64,000 bases of DNA from an uncultured Pirellulaceae bacterium (GTDB taxonomy: Bacteria > Planctomycetota > Planctomycetia > Pirellulales > Pirellulaceae): the NCBI GenBank assembly GCA_964459305.1, contig CAYWNA010000038.1, positions 5,183 through 69,182 of the forward strand. The letters are read 5' to 3'. The notes under the pieces were generated by a model, which saw only the letters and a list, made by a program, of their open reading frames with translations, was not told where the DNA came from and did not search any database. The position numbers and the translations under genes were made by a program. Positions 2,845-19,556 of the stretch are shown one piece after another (position 1 is the first letter of the stretch; each line of letters starts with the position of its first letter).

Positions 2845-3624
2845 ATGGCACAGATGTTGTTCTACGAGAACGTCGTTCCCGTCAGCAAAGAACGGCACAA
2901 GGACCTAAGCATCGAACGCGTTGACTTCGATTTCGCGAGCAACGTCAACTCGGTTCCACTGACCGCGATTGAAATTCCGTTAGCGGCTCGCGAGTACACC
3001 ATCGTGTTCGCAGGTAGCGAGGAAGCCGTCGTTCCCGTTGTCGTCTTGGGCGTCGAAGGAACTGAGAATCAATACCTCGATGAGAACAAAGCCTGGAAAG
3101 CTGACTACATTCCAGCGTTTGTGCGGCGTTATCCGTTCGTCTTCTCGCAGGCGGAAGACGGTTCGCAGTTCATGCTGTGCATCGACGAAACCTGGGCAGG
3201 CTGCAATCGCGAAGGACGGGGGCAGCGTCTGTTCACCGACGAAGGCGAGCAGACGCCCTATCTGCAGAACATGTTGAAGTTCCTTGGTGACTATCAGACG
3301 CAGTTCGTGCGAACGCAGGCTTACTGCAAGAAACTCAAGGAACTTGAATTGCTGGAACCGATGCAAGCCCAGCTCACGCTGCCCGGCGGCGAGAAGCGGG
3401 CGCTCGCCGGCTTCCTCGGTGTGACCCGTGCCAGGATCAACGCACTTGAAGCAGAGAAGTTGGCAGAACTCGTCAAAACCAACGAACTTGAGTTGTGCTA
3501 CCTGCAAATGGCTTCGCTGAACAACCTGGGTTCGGTCGTGAATCGCTCGATGCCGAAGAAAGCATCGGAAGTTGAAGAATCGGAGCCGGTTGAAGAAGAA
3601 AAGAAGACAAGAAAAAAGAAGTAG
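2845..3624 (+). CDS. SapC-family-like protein (tentative family call), acidic/Lys-rich C-terminal tail
   Basis: 259-aa ORF with coherent codon usage. N-terminal FYENVVPVSKERHKDL...VPLTAIE recalls the SapC (PF07277) N-terminus from memory. Not verifiable here. Confidence 0.45.
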   Translation: MAQMLFYENVVPVSKERHKDLSIERVDFDFASNVNSVPLTAIEIPLAAREYTIVFAGSEEAVVPVVVLGVEGTENQYLDENKAWKADYIPAFVRRYPFVFSQAEDGSQFMLCIDETWAGCNREGRGQRLFTDEGEQTPYLQNMLKFLGDYQTQFVRTQAYCKKLKELELLEPMQAQLTLPGGEKRALAGFLGVTRARINALEAEKLAELVKTNELELCYLQMASLNNLGSVVNRSMPKKASEVEESEPVEEEKKTRKKK

Positions 3625-3985: not shown

Positions 3986-4504
3986 TTACCAAAGGCCCGG
4001 TGTGACGATTGCGGTCGTTCCATCCGGCCCGCGCTGGACGCTGTAGTCGCCCATGAGGTTTGAAAAGAAAAGCGTACCGGCAGATGGGTTGCCTGGGATG
4101 AAAATCGCGCCGCTGCCTTTATTCTGATCGATCAATACCCCTTCCCCAAAGAAGACGCCCGATAAATAGGAAATCCCTCCCGGAAGCTGAACCACCGTTG
4201 CTCGCTGGTAGATGTCCATGGCGCGGCCAAGCACCGAAGCCCGATCGCCGCACACGATGTTCGTGGTCAGTCCCTGAGCCAGAGCAAATCCTTCCGAGTT
4301 TGGGGAGGCACCGCCGTTGGAACGACGAATCTGCTGGAAGGCGTTATGGGCGCGTTCAAGTTCGTGCAAGTCGTTCCTCCGCCGCGAGCGAATGAAGATC
4401 CTTCGGCGCTGATCATCGAAGGTACTTTGGGCGGCCTCAAAGGCAGCGTTGGCGTGAACGCTGCTGGTGGCATGAGCTTTAACCTCCAAGGCAAGGCTCT
4501 CCAA
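3986..4504 (-). CDS. hypothetical protein (coding strand ambiguous; overlaps a plus-strand ORF 4346..4567)
   Basis: 172-aa ORF ending ...GTTAIVTPGLW. No recognisable motif. Both strands give protein-like translations. Confidence 0.3.
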   Translation of the reverse strand: MESLALEVKAHATSSVHANAAFEAAQSTFDDQRRRIFIRSRRRNDLHELERAHNAFQQIRRSNGGASPNSEGFALAQGLTTNIVCGDRASVLGRAMDIYQRATVVQLPGGISYLSGVFFGEGVLIDQNKGSGAIFIPGNPSAGTLFFSNLMGDYSVQRGPDGTTAIVTPGLW

Positions 4505-4728
4505 GAGTCGCTCGATTTCGCCGGCATTTTCTCCCAGAACTTCAAGCAGTCCTACAAGACCTGGTAGGTCTGCCTGACAGAGAGACTGGTGTTGTTACAG
4601 CCGGGCCCAACGTCTGCGGACGTTGGGCCCGTGCTTCTTGCGCTCCTGCTGGCCTCCGCCGTTGGGGTGACTGACCTTTAGATGGCGACGAAAAGCGGCG
4701 ATAAGTCGCCGCACTCCGATGGAGTAGG

Positions 4729-6183
4729 CTAGCGCACGAACATGATGCCGAGAAACCCGCCATCCAACAGCAGGCTGTTGTAGTGGATATTGGCTTGGCC
4801 CGTGCTGAGATCGGACGCATTGATTTGATCCGGCGCCAAGGCGACACCGCCGAGTCCCATTAGTCGGTAACCACCGTGGACCAGAAGGCGCTCGGTCAAC
4901 TGATAGGTGAGCACGAAATCGGCCTCGCCGACGAAAGCCACCTTCGTGTCGTTGACTTCAACCGCCGGGGCGAGGACGGAAGAATAGGTGCGTTGCTGCG
5001 CGTGGTTGCCGTAGACACCGAACTTCAGCTTAACGGAGAAGTTGAGGGGACCACCGCGATCGTACAACAGGGCGTCGCCCCCAAACTGTACGCCATAGAG
5101 GTTATTTTCCGCATCGATGTCCAGGGCATCTTTGAACGGTGCGTTCAGCTCGGAAACCAGCAGATCGTCGTTGAACGCAATGTAGCGAAAGCCCCCGAAA
5201 CACGACCACCGACAGCCATCGCTGATGCGCAGGTGGATTTCGCCGCTGTGCAAGCTGGAATCATATTCCACCAGGTATGCGGCAGGATTGACGGCTAGGT
5301 CGAAGCCGGGGCCGTTCAGTTGCAGATTACCCACCGCCGCTGCTTGCCCATCCCATGACGGAATACCCAGGTAGGCAATTTCCCAACCGAATCCACTGGC
5401 ATCATGGTGCGTAACGCCAACCTGGAGCCCCAATTTGTAAGTGAAGTCGAGGTCCGAGGAACTGATTACGCTGCCGCCCGTGGCCTGATCCGTGATGAGT
5501 GACAAACCATCCGCGTTCCTTCGCCGCAGACCCACCAGGTCCACATCCCAAATCCAACCAGAACAACGCCAAGTGAACCAATCGTCCTTAAGGTCGATTT
5601 TCGACGGTTCGGCGGGGGCGTTTCCGGTGGTTTTCGAAGGTGTCGATGGCTTGTCGGATGGTGAGGCTCGGTCGACGGTCGCAGACGACTGCTTTGCCGG
5701 TCGGGGCATGTCGAACATCGAGGCACCGAACGTGGTTGCGGGCTGCGAAACGCTTTGACCGTTGGGCCGCTCGCCAGGCCAAACCAACTGGCTCCGGCTT
5801 TTCGGCGCAAATGTCTTGGTTGTACGAGGCTGGAAGTGAGTCGACCCTCCCGCGCGACGGTAGTTCGTTTGATCGTAGATGGGTACGGCGGTCGGCCCCG
5901 TTTTCGGATATGGCGTCCCCCATGGCACGGCCGCGCCGGATCGCTCCGGTGCCACAGCACGCCCTTGAGGCGCGACAACCTTGGTCGTTGGGTAGCTCGT
6001 TGTCTTGCGTACGGCTGTTGGCGCGTAGCCCCATGGCTGCCAATCCGCTTGCTGGCGTTCCCCCATCCGTGTGTCCGCGCGGGGTCTCTGATTCGGCATG
6101 TCCCACGGCTGGGCGCCGGCCGTATCCAGCAGGCCCAGCACAAGTGCGATCATCATGGTTGAGCGAGCCATCATCACAACCAC
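4729..6183 (-). CDS. putative outer-membrane beta-barrel protein, BBP7-like, with Pro-rich N-terminal region
   Basis: Signal peptide MMIALVLGLLDTAGA, Pro/Thr-rich low-complexity segment, C-terminal alternating beta-strand pattern. Paralogous to 18114..19556 (NNLYGVQFGGD vs NHLYGAQAGGD; GEADFVLTYQ...GGYRLMGLGGVALA vs GEVDLMATYQ...GGYMLLYSEGVALG). Confidence 0.55.
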   Translation of the reverse strand: MVVMMARSTMMIALVLGLLDTAGAQPWDMPNQRPRADTRMGERQQADWQPWGYAPTAVRKTTSYPTTKVVAPQGRAVAPERSGAAVPWGTPYPKTGPTAVPIYDQTNYRRAGGSTHFQPRTTKTFAPKSRSQLVWPGERPNGQSVSQPATTFGASMFDMPRPAKQSSATVDRASPSDKPSTPSKTTGNAPAEPSKIDLKDDWFTWRCSGWIWDVDLVGLRRRNADGLSLITDQATGGSVISSSDLDFTYKLGLQVGVTHHDASGFGWEIAYLGIPSWDGQAAAVGNLQLNGPGFDLAVNPAAYLVEYDSSLHSGEIHLRISDGCRWSCFGGFRYIAFNDDLLVSELNAPFKDALDIDAENNLYGVQFGGDALLYDRGGPLNFSVKLKFGVYGNHAQQRTYSSVLAPAVEVNDTKVAFVGEADFVLTYQLTERLLVHGGYRLMGLGGVALAPDQINASDLSTGQANIHYNSLLLDGGFLGIMFVR

Positions 6184-6546: not shown

Positions 6547-7872
6547 ATGAGGTCCATGAAATCAGCAGGAAAAACCTGTTGTCCATTATTCTATGGGCTT
6601 CTGCTGCCGCTTTGGTGCATGGGGCTAACCTGCGCGCTGGCCGACGAGGTTCGCGACTTCGACCGTCACATGACTCGTTTCCCGCCGGTTAACAATGGAA
6701 GTCGTTCCGGCCAGCGTCTAACTTCGCCTGGTCTATCCGGCGAGACGCACCACCGCTATCCTCGCACTGAATCTCCAGACGCGCCCCAGAGGGGTGGGGT
6801 CCCTCGCACCGGATCTCCGGATGGGCCCTAGAGCGGTGCCTATCCGAGCACCCAACTTCCTGCCCCGTCTCTGAACACGCCGACGGTCACGAACAACATA
6901 AACCGGTACCCCGCACCTGCATGGCCGGTCTCGATACCGAATTCTCTCAACTCCTCTCCGCCGCCAACCGCTCCGGCCGATGGCGGATCGTCGGACACCG
7001 ATGCCGGGTCGGCAGACAAACGTGAACCCATTGGCCCGAAGCCTCCGGAGGATGCCAACGAGCTGCTTGCACGAGACACCAACCTGTTGCTGAAGCCCGG
7101 CAAAGTGCAGACCGAGATCGGTATTCTGTATAGCCGCCAGCAATCACCGAGAATCGCTGTGCTGTCGGATGGGACGCCCATTTTGGAACGTCTTCGCAGT
7201 CGTGCATTCATCGCGCCCTTCAGTCTTCGTTACGGCTTGTCGAAGAAGATGGAGCTGTTTACTGCCATACCGTTTGGGTTGTCGTTTTTCGAGCGCGACA
7301 ACGTTGTCCAGGAATCACATGAGGAAGCCGGCGTGCTTGGGGATATCACCGCCGGTTTCGTGTACCAGCTTCCAGAGACTCGGTTCCACCTGCCGGACAC
7401 AGCTTTCACCTTCAACCTGACGACTCCCACTAGCTCCAATTCGGCTTCGACGATCAGCGGGGATCAAGCGACGTTGGGAAACGGCGTGTGGAAATTGGGC
7501 GTGGGGTTCAATGTCGTCGAGTCGGTTGACCCCATCGTCTTCTTCGGCGGGTTCGGCTACCAATACCAGTTTGCGGAAACCACAAACGGACTTCACATCC
7601 AGCGCGGCGATGCATTCAACTGCTATTTCGGAGCGGGCTTCGCCGTCAGTGACGACATCTCCCTCTCCACGCAAATCACCGGCCTCCTGCAGGACAAGAC
7701 GTCCGTCAGCGGCATCGTGATCCCCAATTCGGACATCGAGCCGCTGTCTGTCCGCCTTGGATTCATACGCCGACTGTCGCTCAAGTCGCGCATTCAGCCG
7801 TCGGTCGAATTCGGACTTACCCAAGACGCGGCGGACGCTACCGTGAGCCTGCGATTCATTCACGACGAATGA
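6547..7872 (+). pseudogene. secreted outer-membrane barrel-like protein (signal peptide + about 150-aa Pro/Ser/Thr linker + beta-rich C-domain) interrupted by one in-frame TAG at 6829..6831
   Basis: ORFs 6547..6831 and 7087..7872 are in the same frame. I translated 6832..7086 by hand and found no further stop (SGAYPSTQLPAPSLNTPTVTNNINRYPAPAWPVSIPNSLNSSPPPTAPADGGSSDTDAGSADKREPIGPKPPEDANELLARDTNLLLKPGKV). N-term MKSAGKTCCPLFYGLLLPLWCMGLTCALA is a strong signal peptide. The C-domain resembles the MetA-pathway/phenol-degradation-like OM transporter family. Confidence 0.5.
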
Positions 7873-7875
7873 GAC

Positions 7876-8637
7876 ATGACCCGAAAGCCAAGTGGCAAAC
7901 GAGCTGAACTACTGGCGGCATTAGCCGTTGTGCTGACGGCATCCATGACCGGCTGCCACGCGGTTAATGAGATGATCGTCAAATACGACGGCAAGGCGAA
8001 AGCCGGCGAAACACACGGGGGCGAGGTTTTCCAGACCATCGGAAACGGTTTTCAGATCCGGCGGCCCACCAAATCATGGCGCACTATCCAGCGCGAAAAC
8101 GTGATCATTCAACGACTAGACTACTCGTGTGGTTCGGGCGCGTTGGCGACCTTACTGCGACACTACTTTGAAGACGACATCACCGAGCAACACGTACTGG
8201 AGGCGATCTTCCAGCGGATCGGGAGGTCGGAAAAGCCCAAAGAGGAACTCAAAGACCGAATCCAAAACGGTTTCTCGATGCTCGATCTACTGAACGCGGC
8301 GAAGGATTTAGGGTATTTGGGGGCTGTGGTTCGCATACCGTTCGCCAAACTAGCCGAGTCGCCAGCTCCCGTCATCGTCCGCATCGAGAAGTACGAGTAC
8401 AAGCACTTCGTCGTTTTCCGCGGCGTACATGACGACACGGTCTATCTCGCCGACCCCATTCGCGGAAATGTCCGGCTCTCAGTCCAAGAATTCCTTGAAC
8501 AGTGGAGCGGTGAATCTCTGTTCCTCGGCAAGCAAGGCTTTGGCCTGCCAAAGGAGTATCCGTTGGCTCTAAAGGTCCGCGGCCCAGCCCGGCCCGAATT
8601 GGAAGTCGCCCGACAAGCTCTTTTTCCCTCGAAGTAG
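7876..8637 (+). CDS. C39-like cysteine peptidase domain lipoprotein
   Basis: Lipobox LTASMTGC. QRLDYSCGSGALATLL (catalytic Cys in the C39 Q..CG.A motif), HFVVFRGVHDDTVYLADP (His/Asp). Starts 4 nt after the upstream stop. Confidence 0.6.
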   Translation: MTRKPSGKRAELLAALAVVLTASMTGCHAVNEMIVKYDGKAKAGETHGGEVFQTIGNGFQIRRPTKSWRTIQRENVIIQRLDYSCGSGALATLLRHYFEDDITEQHVLEAIFQRIGRSEKPKEELKDRIQNGFSMLDLLNAAKDLGYLGAVVRIPFAKLAESPAPVIVRIEKYEYKHFVVFRGVHDDTVYLADPIRGNVRLSVQEFLEQWSGESLFLGKQGFGLPKEYPLALKVRGPARPELEVARQALFPSK

Positions 8638-8757
8638 TACCCAGGGGCAGATTTCGCAGCGATTTGGGTCATCCCCTTCATTGACACTCTCGCCCCGCCG
8701 CCTATAGAATCTCGGACCCGGCCGTTCCGAGTTTCGTTTGAAGTAGGAGAGAAAAGC

Positions 8758-9087
8758 ATGGGCGAGAACGTTTGCGAATTCAACGATGACAACTTCGAGG
8801 CCGAGGTTTTGCAGTCAACGGCCCCGGTACTGGTCGATTTCTGGGCGCCTTGGTGTGGCCCCTGCCGTCTGATCGCACCCGTGATTGACGAATTGGCTAC
8901 CGAGAATGCCGATTCGATCAAGATCGGCAAACTGAATGTGGACGACAGTCCGAAGATGGCGCAGACATACGGCGTTTCCAGCATTCCCACGTTGATGTTG
9001 TTTCAAGGCGGCGAGGTCACCGAACGTTTTGCTGGAGTACAGCCGAAGACGCGTCTGCAGCAGGCGTTGGATAAGGCGGTGGGTTAG
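8758..9087 (+). CDS. trxA: thioredoxin
   Basis: WAPWCGPC active site, 109 aa, canonical thioredoxin length and sequence. Confidence 0.95.
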   Translation: MGENVCEFNDDNFEAEVLQSTAPVLVDFWAPWCGPCRLIAPVIDELATENADSIKIGKLNVDDSPKMAQTYGVSSIPTLMLFQGGEVTERFAGVQPKTRLQQALDKAVG

Positions 9088-9177: not shown

Positions 9178-11814
9178 TCAACGCGCGCCGCCCGGTATGG
9201 TGAAGCGAAACGTGCTGCCCTCTCCAGGCTGGGAATCTACCCAAATGCGGCCCCCGTGTCGCTCCACAATCCTCTTGCAGATCGCCAAACCGACACCGCT
9301 GCCGGCATACTCGTTTTCAGCAGCGTGCAGCCGTTCGAAGATCTCGAAGATCCGTCTTCGGTCGTTGGGATCAATCCCGATGCCGTTGTCGCGCACGCCT
9401 ATCAGCCAATCGCCGTCGACGAGTTCCGCGCTGACATAAATTTCTGGCGGATGGTCTTTGCAGTACTTGATGGCGTTCCCAATCAGGTTCTGAAACAACT
9501 GCATCAATTGCGTCGAGTCCGCCATCACCGTCGGCAGCTCGTCGTGAGTCACTCTGACGCCGCTCTGCTCGATCTCCGCCGCCAAGTTCGTCAGTGCGGC
9601 ATCCAATGCCTCCTGAGAATCCACCGCCTGGGGCGGCTTGCCGCGAGTCGTCACGCGAGCCACGGATCGCAGATCCTCGATCAGGTCTTGCATCCGCTCA
9701 ACACTCTGCTTGGCAAAGAACAGGTATTCGTCGGCTGTGCTGTCGAGTTTTCCTTCGTACTCTTGTTGGAACAGTTCGCAGTAGGTGCTGATCGCCCGCA
9801 GCGGTGCGTGCAGGTCGTGGGATACGACGGCGGTAAACTGCTCCAATTCACGATTGCTGCGTTCCAATTCGGTGGAGTATCGCTTCAGGCCCTCTTCGGC
9901 ACGCCGCTTGTCGGTCACATCCCAAAAGATCGCCTGGGTCCCGACGATGCTTCCCTGAGCGTCATGGACGGGCGTCTTGAGCACCTGCACATAGATGGTT
10001 TCATCGCCTTTCTGGTGCCCTTCGATATCTTCGAACAACTCGCCTGTCGCGATGATCCGCTGGTCATCCTCTCGATACTTGTTGGCAAGCTCTTCTGGAT
10101 ACAAATTCAGATCGGTTTTGCCTACGATCTCGTCCAGAGACATGCCGGACAACGCACAATATGCCCGATTGGCGAAAATAAACCGCCCCTCCAGATCCTT
10201 GCGCAAGATGTTCAACGGAAGGTGTTCGACCAGTGAGGAATAGAGTGCTTCGGAGTCTCTCAAATCCTGTTCGGCCTGTTTGCGTTCATTGATATCGTGC
10301 AGAAAGGCGTTGAAATAGTGCTCTTCACCGAACTTGATGTGGGTTGCGGACATCTCCACTGGAAATTCGTGGCCGTCGCGATGAAGAGCGAAGAACTCGA
10401 CGATCTTATCAAGAAAAGGACTCTCGCCCGTTACCAGGAACTGGCTCAGTCCTTCACGGAAAGCTTCAACGTGTTCGGCTGGGATGATCGTTTCGGCCAG
10501 GGGCCGCCCCAGCGCATCAGTCCGGGACCATCCGAATATCGCCTCGGCCGCAGGATTCCAGTCGATAATGAAGCCGCCCGCATCCATTCCGATGAAGGCC
10601 TCTTTGGCGGTGTCCACGATCATGCGCGTGTGCTGGACATTTCTCCGCAGTTCCGCTGTTATCGCCTGGAGCGTTTCCGTTCGCTGTTCGACCTGCTCTT
10701 CCAGTGTCAGATTCAGTCGCTTCAACTCCTCGTCGGCGCGTTTCTGATCGGTCACGTCCAAAGCCACACCGATCACGCCGACAACCGAACCGTCCCCATC
10801 GCGCAGCGGTTCGGCATGTGACCGATACACGTGTCCGGCCCGTTCCATCTCGAAGTTGACAGACTCTCCCTGACACGCGCGGCGATGGAAGGCGATGGCC
10901 GGAAAGCTCTCGTCCTCCGTGTCGAAAAACTCAAACAGAGACATGCCTACGACTTGATCGGGCTGCAGGTCGAGTCCCGCAAACCCGGCTCCCGCGGACG
11001 ATGTGTAACGCAACTCCAAATCGGTCGTCCACAAGATCGCAGGAATCTGCTCGACCATCAAACGAAGCCTTGCCTCGTTGTCGCGCAACGCTTCCTGGGC
11101 ACGCATCCTCTCGGTGACGTCCCAAAAGAAGGCTTGAACTCCGACAGTCTCTCCTTCGGCGTCTCGAACGGGCGTCTTCAGGACGTGCATGTACCGCGTT
11201 TGGCCATGCTTCACATTTTTCTCGATCGCCTCAAATGGTTCCCCCGTTTCGGCGATGCGGCGTTCGTCCTCCAGATATTTCTGCGCCAACTCCGGCGGGT
11301 TGAAGTCGCAAGGCGTCCTCCCGATGATTTCTTCCTGCTTGCAGCCGAGCAACTGGCAGAACGAGCTATTTGCATAAGTGAATCTGCCTTCGAGGTCCTT
11401 CCGTACCACGTACACCGGCAGGGTCTCGACCAGCGACTGGTACATCCGTTCCGATTCCCGTAGCTTCTCCTCCGAACGTCTTCGCGAGTCGAGATCATGC
11501 TGCCACTGCACCAGCGATGCCGTTGCCGCCCAAATGCCTGCAAACAGCAGGATTCGCGGAACCAGAGATCGAATCGCCGAGTCGCCGGGCGGCGGCGACA
11601 CAACGAACACAAGCAGCATGAGGGCCGTTGCGATGACAAGGGTGAAAAACCACCATTTCGACGCGCGCAGAGCGATCAGCACGGCAACAACGAGGGGCAT
11701 ACCGAGAGCCAAGACCAGCGGTAGCGGCAGATTCCACAACGCCGCCGCTGATGCCAAGACGGCCGCGAGCAATACCACCGCTTCACGTACGAGCTGGCTC
11801 CTGATCGCGCGCAT
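9178..11814 (-). CDS. membrane-anchored multi-PAS sensor histidine kinase
   Basis: Two N-terminal TM segments, three PAS-like blocks, H-box AVVSHDLHAPLRAI, HATPase G-boxes (GIGI, GSGVGLAIC). The tool ORF extends to 11958 with a GTG start. An internal ATG at 11814 precedes the TM region. Confidence 0.9.
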   Translation of the reverse strand: MRAIRSQLVREAVVLLAAVLASAAALWNLPLPLVLALGMPLVVAVLIALRASKWWFFTLVIATALMLLVFVVSPPPGDSAIRSLVPRILLFAGIWAATASLVQWQHDLDSRRRSEEKLRESERMYQSLVETLPVYVVRKDLEGRFTYANSSFCQLLGCKQEEIIGRTPCDFNPPELAQKYLEDERRIAETGEPFEAIEKNVKHGQTRYMHVLKTPVRDAEGETVGVQAFFWDVTERMRAQEALRDNEARLRLMVEQIPAILWTTDLELRYTSSAGAGFAGLDLQPDQVVGMSLFEFFDTEDESFPAIAFHRRACQGESVNFEMERAGHVYRSHAEPLRDGDGSVVGVIGVALDVTDQKRADEELKRLNLTLEEQVEQRTETLQAITAELRRNVQHTRMIVDTAKEAFIGMDAGGFIIDWNPAAEAIFGWSRTDALGRPLAETIIPAEHVEAFREGLSQFLVTGESPFLDKIVEFFALHRDGHEFPVEMSATHIKFGEEHYFNAFLHDINERKQAEQDLRDSEALYSSLVEHLPLNILRKDLEGRFIFANRAYCALSGMSLDEIVGKTDLNLYPEELANKYREDDQRIIATGELFEDIEGHQKGDETIYVQVLKTPVHDAQGSIVGTQAIFWDVTDKRRAEEGLKRYSTELERSNRELEQFTAVVSHDLHAPLRAISTYCELFQQEYEGKLDSTADEYLFFAKQSVERMQDLIEDLRSVARVTTRGKPPQAVDSQEALDAALTNLAAEIEQSGVRVTHDELPTVMADSTQLMQLFQNLIGNAIKYCKDHPPEIYVSAELVDGDWLIGVRDNGIGIDPNDRRRIFEIFERLHAAENEYAGSGVGLAICKRIVERHGGRIWVDSQPGEGSTFRFTIPGGAR

Positions 11815-12143
11815 ACACAGTTGCCTCGCATAAGCGTGAGACAACTCCCTGGAAAAATGCCACTCACACGTCGTAGCGGAAGTCGTGAGACCTTCCGCGA
11901 CCGAACTTTCACGAGTCCGACCACGATTATTTTGGTTGTTGGGAGCTGCCTGAAACACGCCAGACTTCGAAATGAAATCCGGACAGGCCTACCTAATCAT
12001 ACGGCATTCTATCGACGGCGACCAACGTTTTGGCGGGTGTGACAGACCAATTACCGCGCATTCTCGTCGGACTATGCGTTGTATGACGAGTTCCCTATCT
12101 TCATGTCCGCCGATGGGCTCTCACTTCAGGGAGGGATGAATTC

Positions 12144-12887: not shown

Positions 12888-13841
12888 CTACGTCTTCAAT
12901 CTCCGCACCAGTTCCGGCCAGTAACCGATAGCGAGACCTACGAGGAGTCCAACACCGTGAGCCAAGTTCGCGATACCTTTCCCGAGAAGAGCATCGAGAA
13001 CGCCAGCGAACCCCAGCAGCATAAAGCCCAGCAGAATTGCCACCGTTCCGCCGCTGACGTACAGGCCCGAATCCGGCTCGTAGGTGGTCTTCATCCACAA
13101 ATAGCCAAGCAGACCGTACACGACCCCCGACATACCGACGAAGTACGGCCCCCCGGAAAACGTCCCCCAGTCCGATGGTGCTAGTCCCTGAGCGAGGTTG
13201 GAAATCAACGCAATGACCAACATGATCAGGGCAAGCCGTGCGCTGCCGCGCCGGTCTTCGATCATCCTCGCAAACATGTGAAACATATACATGTTGAAGG
13301 CCAAATGAAAAATATCGCCGTGCAGGAAGATCGGAGTTACGACTCGCCAGACCTGACCCGCCGAGATGTCAACCAGCCGATCGGCTAGTCGATTCCCGTT
13401 CCAGTCGGTCGGTTGCATCGTGTCACAGAACTGCAATGTGCGCATCGCAACGCTCGCGGGGTTGCGCCCGAGCCCAGAAAGAAGGAAGAGGACAATACAC
13501 AGCAGGATCGTCGCGACAACCAATGGGCTTCGGCGCGATCCCGGCCGATTCCACCGGCCACGCATTTGAACCACGTTCTTTCGCGCCTCCTCGCGGCGAT
13601 TTGACTCCGCCTCCAGAATTGCGCTGGCCTCGCGGCGCACACCCTGATAACGAGAATCGTCCGGATTCTGCACAAACTGCTCGACGGCTTCTTTCGCCTG
13701 CTGAAGCTGATCCTCATCGCGGACCCATATTGCCCAAGACTCGCCTTCGTGTTCCGCGTGGGCAGGAATGCCTTGAGTGATCAGGAATGCAATCAGGCGT
13801 TCCGCCTGAACTTGATTCGGTAGTATTCCGATTTGTCGCAT
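12888..13841 (-). CDS. rhomboid family intramembrane serine protease with N-terminal cytoplasmic domain
   Basis: GMSGVVYG (GxSG catalytic Ser) and NLAHGVGL (catalytic His) within 6 TM helices. Confidence 0.85.
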   Translation of the reverse strand: MRQIGILPNQVQAERLIAFLITQGIPAHAEHEGESWAIWVRDEDQLQQAKEAVEQFVQNPDDSRYQGVRREASAILEAESNRREEARKNVVQMRGRWNRPGSRRSPLVVATILLCIVLFLLSGLGRNPASVAMRTLQFCDTMQPTDWNGNRLADRLVDISAGQVWRVVTPIFLHGDIFHLAFNMYMFHMFARMIEDRRGSARLALIMLVIALISNLAQGLAPSDWGTFSGGPYFVGMSGVVYGLLGYLWMKTTYEPDSGLYVSGGTVAILLGFMLLGFAGVLDALLGKGIANLAHGVGLLVGLAIGYWPELVRRLKT

Positions 13842-18113: not shown

Positions 18114-19556
18114 CTACCACATGTACTCAACACCAAACGTCCAGCCGTACCAAACAGCGTTGCCACTCGTGTCGACGGTAACGAGTCTTTCCGCCGGCGT
18201 CGCCCCCACCGGGACACCAAGTGCCGTAGGCGGAGCCGGATTGAAGTTCTCCGTTCCCAAAGCTACCCCCTCGCTGTACAAAAGCATGTATCCGCCTCGG
18301 ATCGTGAATTTGGGACTGACTTGGTACGTTGCCATTAGATCCACTTCGCCGACGAAAGACGCTTGGCTGCTGTGGGCCTCTTCGAATTGCCCTAGCGGAA
18401 TCGAGGTGGCCACGATTGACGTCTGCTGCCGCGCATCGTTACCGAAGAGACCAGCCTTGAGCTCGCCACCGACGTTCAGACCAGGCAGGAGGCACATCCA
18501 AAGGTCGCCCCCGGCTTGGGCTCCGTACAAATGGTTGACGGCCGTCACCTCGTAGTTCATGAACGGTGCGGGAGGTGTGTTCGGCGGGCTGCTGTTTAGA
18601 GGGGCGAGCGTGTTGTATTTCAAGTTGTCGCGTAGCTGAAAGTACCGGAAGCCTAACAGGTAGGACCCCTGAAATAGGCAGGTAGGGCCGACCCAGCGTC
18701 GTCGGTAGTTCGCTTCGATGGTGTTCATGCTGGTCTTGAACGTGAGTTCATGGAAGTCTGCCCGGTCGACTTCAACATACCCGAAGAACGGCACACCTCG
18801 CGGATTGGTACCAAACTCACTGAACGGAGACCAGAGCCTCGTCGTCGTATCCGTGACCGAGGCACCAGCGGACCAGTGAGTCATACCCAGATAGGTCACC
18901 TCGACATTGCTGCCAGGCCCCGTCTGGAAGGTGCCCGTCACGCGCAACCCTGGTTCGGTCCCCAACTCCAGGTCATCCGAGTCGAGGACAATGTTCGGAG
19001 GATCGGTCGGGGGCGAAGGGAAGCCCAACGACGAGAAAGGAACGTTCTCAGACACTTGGTCGCGTTCCAGGAACACGGCTTCGGCGTGAACGTCAAACCA
19101 GTGTGGGGCGCAGCAGCCTCCTTCGCTGTATGGCGCGAGCAGGCCCAGAATACGCAACAGGCCGCCCGCCAACCTACCCCCATGGTATCCTCCGTACGAG
19201 TAGTACTCGGCGTCCGCCTGCTGGTCCAACAGCTCTTCCAGTGTATCGGCTTCCAATGGGTCCGGGGGTTCCGGTGTCTCCGGTTGCGGTTCTGGTTGTA
19301 GGTAATTCGCCGGCACGACCTGTGAGAATCCGGCTGGTGCCACTTGAGACCAACCAGGCTGGTACGTCATCCCAGGTTGGTACATCATCGGCGGCAACGC
19401 CGCACTGCCCGCTGCAGATGGGTGCCATGATAGTGGCCGCGGCGGGTAGAAATAGGAAGGTTGACCGTGGACGGTCTGCCCACGCACGTCGACCTCGGAG
19501 GTAGAGAAAGCCAAGACGGCGACAATGGTGATCAACCAAGCCCGTTCAGTTGTCAT
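18114..19556 (-). CDS. putative outer-membrane beta-barrel protein, BBP7-like (paralog of 4729..6183)
   Basis: Signal peptide, Pro-rich N-region (PPDPLEADTLEELLDQ), C-terminal barrel ending ...GWTFGVEYMW. Confidence 0.55.
   Translation of the reverse strand: MTTERAWLITIVAVLAFSTSEVDVRGQTVHGQPSYFYPPRPLSWHPSAAGSAALPPMMYQPGMTYQPGWSQVAPAGFSQVVPANYLQPEPQPETPEPPDPLEADTLEELLDQQADAEYYSYGGYHGGRLAGGLLRILGLLAPYSEGGCCAPHWFDVHAEAVFLERDQVSENVPFSSLGFPSPPTDPPNIVLDSDDLELGTEPGLRVTGTFQTGPGSNVEVTYLGMTHWSAGASVTDTTTRLWSPFSEFGTNPRGVPFFGYVEVDRADFHELTFKTSMNTIEANYRRRWVGPTCLFQGSYLLGFRYFQLRDNLKYNTLAPLNSSPPNTPPAPFMNYEVTAVNHLYGAQAGGDLWMCLLPGLNVGGELKAGLFGNDARQQTSIVATSIPLGQFEEAHSSQASFVGEVDLMATYQVSPKFTIRGGYMLLYSEGVALGTENFNPAPPTALGVPVGATPAERLVTVDTSGNAVWYGWTFGVEYMW

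Follow-up and report, generated by a model that had tools for sequence, protein, structure and literature searches.

The interrupted channel gene and its locus

The stretch of DNA analysed here, referred to below as the window, consists of 64,000 nucleotides (nt) from an uncultured Pirellulaceae bacterium (assembly GCA_964459305.1, contig CAYWNA010000038.1, positions 5,183 to 69,182 of the forward strand). It contains two adjacent plus-strand genes, the first for a predicted outer-membrane channel resembling FapF of the Pseudomonas functional-amyloid (Fap) machinery and the second for a FapD-like C39 cysteine peptidase. The channel gene is interrupted by an in-frame TAG. Probably a recent nonsense mutation has put the channel gene out of action, within a secretion module of the FapF/FapD type that this Pirellulaceae lineage is losing. 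Features of the window and of related loci, the latter denoted by L numbers (their proteins by P numbers), are collected in Table 1.

Positions 6547-7872 of the plus strand translate as one frame of 442 codons, in which the TAG is the sole internal stop. The original prediction, made from the sequence alone, had read the open reading frames (ORFs) at 6547-6831 and 7087-7872 as one gene split only by an amber codon, and the translation bears this out. The frame opens with a Sec-type signal peptide at 6547-6642, MRSMKSAGKTCCPLFYGLLLPLWCMGLTCALA/DE (...LTCALA/DE), which leads into a Pro/Gly/Ser-rich stretch. The actual start is probably the ATG at 6556 rather than 6547, because the orthologues open with MKSAG.... 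The full-length orthologues P0003-P0005 and P0007 align with the window gene in both the signal peptide and an RFPPV motif. The motif lies 5' of the TAG, and the truncated product therefore retains it. The form R-[FLM]-P-P-V stands just past the signal peptide in every full-length Pirellulaceae FapF-like protein (P0003-P0014), and it occurs three times in the FapF-like protein of Pirellula staleyi (L017 8425-9996).

Downstream of the TAG, the 85 codons of 6832-7086 contain no in-frame ATG, GTG or TTG, and the ORF list does not place a start before the TTG at 7087. The product of that start has no signal peptide, and nothing 3' of the TAG provides both a start codon and a signal peptide; therefore the barrel cannot be exported unless the stop is read through. 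The Pro-rich, disordered N-terminal region that had been described is real, and the AlphaFold confidence (predicted local distance difference test, pLDDT) is below 50 over residues 1-63 of the post-TAG product. The barrel frame ends in a TGA at 7870-7872 and the peptidase gene begins after a spacing of 3 nt, so the tight coupling of the pair stands and the 4-nt gap given earlier does not.

The TAG is a real, non-conserved, ordinary stop codon. Every orthologue that covers the site, over a range of 55-77% identity, has a sense codon at this position, an intact protein and the same signal peptide, which answers the question that the original prediction had put to orthologous loci. In the alignment P0003, P0004 and P0005 (442-445 amino acids (aa), 55% identity) and P0007 (63%) are uninterrupted here, as are loci L003, L009 and L010. 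The same TAG is present in six assemblies from five samples: L001/L014 (ENA SAMN10231914), L013 (ENA SAMN10231913), L002 (Logan SRR8062346), L012 (JGI 3300009128) and L016 (JGI 3300007510). Further assemblies carrying the site were recovered through their identical C39 protein. The TAG-bearing assemblies differ from the window by a few single-nucleotide polymorphisms (SNPs) elsewhere. A sense allele was sought in the JGI metagenomes with the exact 40-nt context and NNN in place of the stop, and there was no match. TAG is also the commonest ordinary stop in the window, where it ends 22 of the 49 long ORFs, including the genes for the peptidase and for a BBP7-like barrel protein, and these stops fall where the homologous proteins end, as in the C39 protein.

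Apart from the TAG, the barrel shows neither a second stop nor a frameshift, and for this reason the mutation is likely to be recent. Private changes affect 2 of 72 otherwise invariant columns, a number equal to that of intact orthologues; this lack of excess rules out an old pseudogene with long-term decay of the barrel. Among near-identical assemblies the 786-nt barrel has five variable sites (T278P in two assemblies; T293T, I303L, I351L and D370A in L015), four of them non-synonymous; D370 is nearly invariant in the family. The 762-nt C39 gene has no variable site in the same assemblies. The barrel SNPs hint at relaxed constraint and carry little weight. The L015 differences (JGI 3300009320; window 7425-7655) are four A>C or T>G changes, which reflect either real differences between strains in a gene under relaxed constraint or errors from low sequencing coverage.

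Table 1. Coordinates of features in the window (no locus number) and of leader-protein genes in related loci (locus number given).
Feature	Position	Strand	Remarks
SapC-family protein	2845-3624	+	PF07277, E=2.8e-68
5'-truncated remnant of small leader gene (s1 type)	4250-4567	+	...AHDVRG and mature domain
GC-rich terminator-like hairpin	4602-4631	+	Between remnant and convergent BBP7-like gene; kept after s1 in L010
BBP7-like beta-barrel protein	4729-6183	-	PF07585, 2.3e-6; signal peptide; ~200-aa low-complexity N-terminal region; ~480 aa
FapF-like gene, 5' fragment	6547-6828	+	Sec signal peptide, R-F-P-P-V motif, Pro/Gly/Ser-rich stretch; stops at premature TAG
R-F-P-P-V motif	6676-6690	+	Conserved; 5' of TAG
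Premature in-frame TAG	6829-6831	+	Context CCC-TAG-A; codon 95
Disordered Pro/Ser/Thr-rich linker of FapF-like protein	6832-7053	+	Translation; AlphaFold pLDDT
Predicted plug helix ANELLARDT	7054-7080	+	Model residues 75-83; inside most conserved segment EPIGPKPPEDANELLARDTNLLLKPG
FapF-type outer-membrane beta-barrel, including TGA stop	7105-7872	+	PF13557, NCBIfam, PDB, Foldseek; no signal peptide of its own
FapD-like C39 cysteine peptidase, probable lipoprotein	7876-8637	+	PF03412, NCBIfam FapD/FilB; 253 aa
Lipobox Cys27 of C39 peptidase	7954-7956	+	Cys at lipobox position in most homologues
Catalytic residues of C39 peptidase	Q79 8110-8112, C85 8128-8130, H177 8404-8406, D193 8452-8454	+	Invariant in 26 homologues
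Sigma-70-type promoter-like site	8681-8710		TTGACA, 18-nt spacer, TAGAAT; 11/12 matches; upstream of thioredoxin
Thioredoxin, cytoplasmic type	8758-9087		TIGR01068, E=7e-38
Large multi-PAS histidine kinase	9178-11958	-	Syntenic in closest relatives, not in L005, L011, L017
Rhomboid protease with cytoplasmic N-domain	12888-13841	-	
Second BBP7-family barrel, 480 aa	18114-19556	-	Distant paralogue, E=1e-17 against orthologue profile
Leader-protein genes, L005	2453-4969	-	
Leader-protein genes, L010	5767-8076	+	
Leader-protein genes, L011	6885-9269	-	
Leader-protein genes, L019	656-4060		
Leader-protein gene, L017	15325-15648		Single copy beside pair
Leader-protein gene, L032	8249-8893		Single copy beside pair
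Leader-protein gene, L033	7608-7898		Single copy beside pair
Leader-protein gene, L043	8578-8928		Single copy beside pair
Leader-protein gene, L051	7977-8312		Single copy beside pair

Relationship of the barrel to FapF

The tentative placement of the C-terminal domain in PF13557 agrees with the profile search (25.1 bits, cut-off 22). Among the NCBIfam models FapF gives the best match (2.4e-17), with FilC at 1.7e-8, and the score against the FapF equivalog model, 62.9 bits, is far under its cut-off of 700. A profile of the family matches the PDB structure of FapF (5o65) over the whole barrel with E=1.3e-23. The AlphaFold model of the post-TAG product has a mean pLDDT of 73 and exceeds 90 across much of the barrel; it consists of 63 disordered residues, a helix at 75-83 and then the barrel, whose first strand spans residues 92-110. 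When this model is compared with the PDB by Foldseek, FapF chains fill the top 18 places, with a target-normalised TM-score of 0.75-0.85, and next come COG4313 channels such as PDB 4RL8 with E about 1e-12. On these profile and structure scores, the barrel is best described as a distant homologue of FapF and not as an equivalog.

The segment I162-G185 (EPIGPKPPEDANELLARDTNLLLKPG) consists of invariant alignment columns, is the most conserved part of the family and holds the predicted helix. In FapF a helical plug lies just ahead of strand 1 (PMC5557850), and the helix predicted for the window protein occupies the equivalent place. No counterpart of the coiled coil that FapF has at its N-terminus, which is periplasmic and trimerises the transporter, is visible in the sequence, where the region is Pro/Ser/Gly-rich and shows no helix-forming stretch.

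The C39 peptidase and its pairing with the barrel

The downstream protein was guessed to belong to PF03412, and it matches that family with E=4.7e-20 (72 bits); it has no other domain and no ATP-binding cassette (ABC) transporter domains. Its matches to the NCBIfam models are 8e-28 for FapD and 5e-24 for FilB. Against the FapD equivalog model it scores 97.2 bits, under the cut-off of 330. The set of catalytic residues is complete, as had been claimed, and all four (Q/C/H/D) are invariant in the 26 homologues. The N-terminus reads MTRKPSGKRAELLAALAVVLTASMTG-C, and most homologues share this lipobox-like Cys. The lipobox that had been proposed is thus plausible, and the peptidase is probably periplasmic and lipid-anchored.

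The closest genomes to the window are metagenome-assembled genomes of Pirellulaceae, and the FapF-like/C39 pair is also present in the cultured Pirellula staleyi DSM 6068 (L017; CP001848, around 3.64-3.66 Mb). With a C39 profile, 80 metagenome loci were collected. A FapF-like gene adjoins the C39 gene on the same strand in 59 of them, upstream of it in 46 and downstream of it in 13. In 18 of the other 21 loci less than 700 nt are available upstream of the C39 gene, where the contig edge would conceal a partner on that side. In L040 and L080 there is enough sequence to either side of the C39 gene and no FapF-like match, and L058 has 1.1 kb upstream. The two genes are same-strand neighbours in L003, L005, L009-L011 and L017 as well. 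Colocalised fapD and fapF homologues outside Fap operons have been reported from five further phyla (2018 review, PMC6173800). The proximity of peptidase and barrel first noticed in the window is therefore retained in related genomes, and the pair is a conserved unit.

Small secreted proteins as candidate cargo

Clusters of four to five small secreted paralogues adjoin the pair in L005, L010, L011 and L019, and other loci have single copies (Table 1); the one such gene of Pirellula staleyi, for a protein of 107 aa, lies 4.6 kb from the pair. Similar leader proteins occur beside pairs in L078, L082, L093 and others, in many unrelated metagenome loci. In layout these proteins have a Sec signal peptide, a conserved leader of the form ..(E/D)LPAAL..G....(V/I)(L/V)(T/S)xxEAxx(V/I)RG and a divergent mature part. 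The spacing of the leader matches that of the double-glycine leader LSxxELxxIxGG, the form recognized by C39 peptidases. A variant, VKAVPMSSxELSxVKG, is found directly upstream of the C39 gene in the group with the C39-then-barrel order, and fully canonical LSxxELxxIxGG leaders are present in L078 (LSDDELASITGG) and L082 (LTDMDLATIQGG). The original prediction had suggested looking for a GG-type leader in the N-terminal ORF of the window; there is none, and such leaders are instead carried by these separate small proteins beside the pair in related loci.

The association of the leaders with the pair was assessed with a filter combining the motif [LIVM][STDGNA]xx[EDQ][ALMI]xx[IVL]xG with a signal peptide. 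It returned 30 matches, spread over 18 loci, at no more than 5 kb from the pair, and none in 239,151 aa of six-frame ORFs lying farther away. A hidden Markov model (HMM) of the Pirellulaceae leader, even when iterated, did not reach the distant loci that the filter reached. Scans against Pfam and NCBIfam assigned the small leader proteins to no family, and every one of their homologues in the databases is annotated as "hypothetical protein".

The FapE proteins of true Fap operons (L006 6949-7740, L007 9092-9889) carry AIDDAQLADVAGK or AIDDEQMAGVAGK right after the signal peptide. FapE is the only Fap protein for which no N-terminal peptides were found by mass spectrometry (Rouse et al., PMC5557850), and a leader-like motif in FapE fits the published suspicion that FapD processes its N-terminus. 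The FapD substrate is still described as unknown or just presumed (PMC6173800; PMC12822426). Their place beside the pair and the resemblance of the motifs make it likely that the small leader proteins are substrates of the peptidase and cargo of the barrel.

The mature parts encoded by L017 15325-15648 and L051 7977-8312 consist of short repeats such as DANVDVDANVKV and NANVDVHAVANV, which call to mind the subunits of fibres or amyloids built from repeats.

Comparison with known systems

A barrel with a Pro-rich tether and a dedicated peptidase had been presented as an arrangement with no described counterpart. This is incorrect, as the two proteins are homologues of FapF and FapD. In the reference system, fapABCDEF, for which FapF structures are available (PDB 5O65/5O67/5O68; Rouse et al. 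2017, PMC5557850), FapD is a stand-alone, Sec-exported, periplasmic C39 peptidase needed for secretion through FapF (PMC5557850). The window pair shares with it a 12-stranded PF13557/COG4313 barrel, a helix just before strand 1 and a disordered linker N-terminal to that helix. It also shares a Sec-exported stand-alone C39 protein whose Cys/His site is intact and whose gene adjoins that of the barrel. Moreover, related loci have, like Fap, a neighbouring small secreted protein with the N-terminal motif [ILVM]-[STD]-x-x-[EQ]-[LAM]-x-x-[IV]-x-G, which in FapE reads AIDDAQLADVAGK.

The differences from Fap are considerable. No FapA and no FapB/FapC (PF27129) are found among the scanned neighbours in the window or the small proteins of L005, L010 and L017, whereas the true Fap operons L006 and L007 do show FapA, FapB and FapC. 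The gene order is F-then-D here, in contrast to D-E-F in Fap, and where FapF has a coiled coil, the N-terminal region of the channel is a Pro-rich sequence bearing RFPPV motifs. Further differences are the lipobox of the peptidase, the linked BBP7-like barrel and the stop that breaks the channel gene. The NCBIfam scores are 63 against a cut-off of 700 for FapF, and 97 against 330 for FapD. In view of the missing FapA/B/C, the missing coiled coil and the sub-equivalog scores, the locus is related to Fap but is not a Fap operon.

Stand-alone fapD/fapF pairs (PMC6173800) and the FilB/FilC "putative pilus system" resemble the locus in having a C39 gene adjacent to a FapF-like barrel gene and no amyloid subunits. 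However, the window scores are far under the FilB and FilC cut-offs (475 and 630), and the Pirellulaceae loci differ from all of these by the addition of a BBP7-like barrel and of clusters of leader-bearing small proteins. Peptidase-containing ABC transporters (PDB 4RY2, 6MPZ) have the same C39 fold and catalytic residues, and the leaders of the candidate substrates have their LSxxELxxIxGG spacing. Yet the peptidase here would be a free periplasmic protein or lipoprotein, where in the ABC exporters it is a domain on the cytoplasmic side; the leaders come after a Sec signal peptide, and export across the outer membrane would proceed via a FapF-type barrel and not via TolC. COG4313/PF13557 (Phenol_MetA_deg) channels such as PDB 4RL8 have the barrel fold and Pfam family in common with the window protein. 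They take up hydrophobic molecules and have no associated C39 peptidase reported (PMC6173800), and the window barrel is clearly nearer to FapF than to them. We searched the literature on FapF in Planctomycetes, on FilB/FilC, on periplasmic C39 peptidases with double-glycine leaders and on cleavage of FapE by FapD, and in the library searched found no description of this variant or of the two additions in the Pirellulaceae loci.

State of the module in the window

The neighbourhood of the pair in the window can be compared with that in L010, where the order is s1-s4, a BBP7-like gene (minus strand), the FapF-like gene, the C39 gene and thioredoxin. All that is left of the small-protein cluster in the window is the remnant at 4250-4567, which aligns at 62% identity with L010 s1 (153 aa; residues 51-151, or 62-162 on the 164-aa ORF). 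The homology begins exactly at ...AHDVRG and runs to near the C-terminus. Upstream of it, in any frame, there is no homology, start codon, signal peptide or LPAAL leader, and the leader HMM matches nothing in the window, leaving no intact leader-type substrate gene beside the peptidase. The module in this species has two independent lesions, the loss or truncation of its cargo genes and the nonsense codon in its channel gene. As a whole it appears to be decaying, with the C39 and BBP7-like genes still intact.

In intact relatives, we propose, the channel gene would encode a Sec-exported protein of ~440 aa with a disordered Pro-rich region bearing R-Phi-P-P-V, a plug helix and a 12-stranded FapF-type barrel, and it would be co-transcribed with the gene for the periplasmic, lipid-anchored C39 peptidase. 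In the small Sec-exported substrates the signal peptide would be followed by a double-glycine-type propeptide (..LPAAL..vLTxxEAxxVRG); the peptidase would remove this propeptide in the periplasm, and the barrel would then export the mature protein. This scheme parallels the one proposed for FapD, FapE and FapF. In the species of the window a point mutation has created the TAG at codon 95, so that translation ends after a 94-aa fragment bearing the signal peptide. The plug and barrel, with neither a start nor a signal peptide of their own, cannot reach the outer membrane, and the adjacent substrate cluster has shrunk to the single 5'-truncated remnant. We infer that the products of the truncated gene are non-functional.

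Several points weigh against this interpretation. The steps that lead from substrate through peptidase to channel are drawn from gene neighbourhood and motif similarity alone. In E. coli, a stop in the context CCC-TAG-A (Pro in the P site, followed by A) terminates translation weakly. Small leader genes are missing within 10 kb in the intact relatives L003/L008 and L009 too; cargo genes can therefore lie elsewhere, and the loss of the cluster alone is no proof of a dead module. An undamaged barrel fits a very recent mutation and selection acting via readthrough equally well. Four of the five barrel SNPs come from L015 alone, lie at most 310 nt from a contig end, are all A>C or T>G and may be errors. 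Finally, the assemblies are near-identical, so the universal presence of the TAG may reflect one young clone.

According to the original prediction, the TAG could represent a recent nonsense mutation, programmed readthrough or a sequencing error. The evidence favours the first of the three. Under readthrough the channel would still function, a leaky or programmed TAG yielding mostly a short periplasmic RFPPV peptide and a small fraction of full-length channel. A barrel that is undamaged and has no excess of private substitutions, a downstream C39 gene that is intact and invariant across haplotypes, the weak termination context and the occurrence of the TAG allele in every assembly sampled would all be expected in this case. 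Yet no orthologue has a stop at this position, TAG is the preferred ordinary stop of the window, and the region 3' of it contains no stimulatory RNA structure (the fold of 6820-6920 has z=0.45 relative to shuffles). The window holds no tRNA gene, the neighbouring substrate gene is truncated, and programmed cases of this kind are rare in bacteria. We consider readthrough unlikely, and its programmed form finds no support in the sense codons of the orthologues, the ordinary use of TAG or the RNA fold.

Alternatively, the split may have left a useful remainder, the 94-aa fragment or the C39 peptidase or both being kept for a role independent of the barrel; the peptidase might, for example, process other periplasmic proteins or work together with the BBP7-like barrel. 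The C39 and BBP7-like genes are intact, the former without SNPs, linkage of the BBP7-like gene with the pair is seen in two different arrangements, and the RFPPV motif is located 5' of the TAG, all of which would suit such a role. Where the contig permits the test, however, the C39 gene almost always has a FapF-like gene next to it, a stop ~1 kb upstream would be expected to lower the expression of the tightly spaced downstream gene, and positive evidence for an independent role is lacking. This makes retention of a useful remainder decidedly unlikely.

Decoding of the TAG as an amino acid, via pyrrolysine or a genomic amber suppressor, is very improbable: the 64 kb are only part of a genome in which tRNA or pyl genes could lie elsewhere, but no tRNA was found in the window and TAG ends 22 of its 49 long ORFs at the ends of the homologues, the C39 protein among them, and recoding was rejected on these grounds. 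A sequencing or assembly artefact in a gene that is intact in the organism, an idea to which the origin of the sequence from metagenome assemblies might lend itself, has next to no probability and is in effect ruled out by the identical TAG in six assemblies from five samples and at least three pipelines (JGI, ENA third-party assembly, Logan), on haplotypes with differing SNP backgrounds.

Returning to inactivation by a recent nonsense mutation, the TAG itself is of little general importance, as it marks just another young pseudogene in a Pirellulaceae population from the environment. Its value is in the context. We somewhat favour the view that the locus in the window is a decaying member of a widespread class of secretion modules of the FapD/FapF type, in which the C39 peptidase cleaves the double-glycine-type propeptide of the cargo and thereby licenses its export through the barrel. 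The cargo motif ranges from ..EAxxVRG in Pirellulaceae to the canonical LSxxELxxIxGG in other lineages, with AIDDxQLAxVAG in FapE. If this view is true, the long-sought substrate class of FapD would be named, and a general two-step "Sec + C39 + FapF" pathway would extend beyond amyloids. The leader-bearing small proteins beside stand-alone FapD/FapF loci, together with the FapE motif, provide a testable cleavage site and cargo class, and Pirellula staleyi DSM 6068 is a cultured organism in which this secretion route could be tested.

Other genes near the pair

Two further candidates near the pair were rejected. The minus-strand ORF at 3986-4504 (172 aa) is probably a shadow ORF, as its similarity in L010 is antisense to a real plus-strand small-protein gene. 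The thioredoxin is not counted as part of the module: it has no signal peptide, it has a strong, near-consensus promoter-like site of its own directly upstream, and it is absent from L005, L011 and L017. It belongs to a separate transcription unit.

The BBP7-like gene, whose place beside the pair is conserved in Pirellulaceae, lies upstream of the pair and divergent to it in the window, L003, L009, L010 and L019, and downstream of it and convergent in L005, L011 and L021. Because the linkage persists through rearrangement, the gene order suggests that the BBP7-like gene is functionally tied to the pair. The paralogue at 18114-19556 indicates that the BBP7 family is multi-copy. The window BBP7-like protein ends in ...GIMFVR, and five of the five orthologues examined end in Trp (..VECVW, ..LEYVW, ..LTVRW); the altered C-terminus may be a further degenerative change or may be harmless. 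The low-complexity regions of these proteins contain YP-x-T and GTFGASMFP repeats, the latter twice in L010 8086-9639, and are Y/P/Q/N-rich in L005 and L011.

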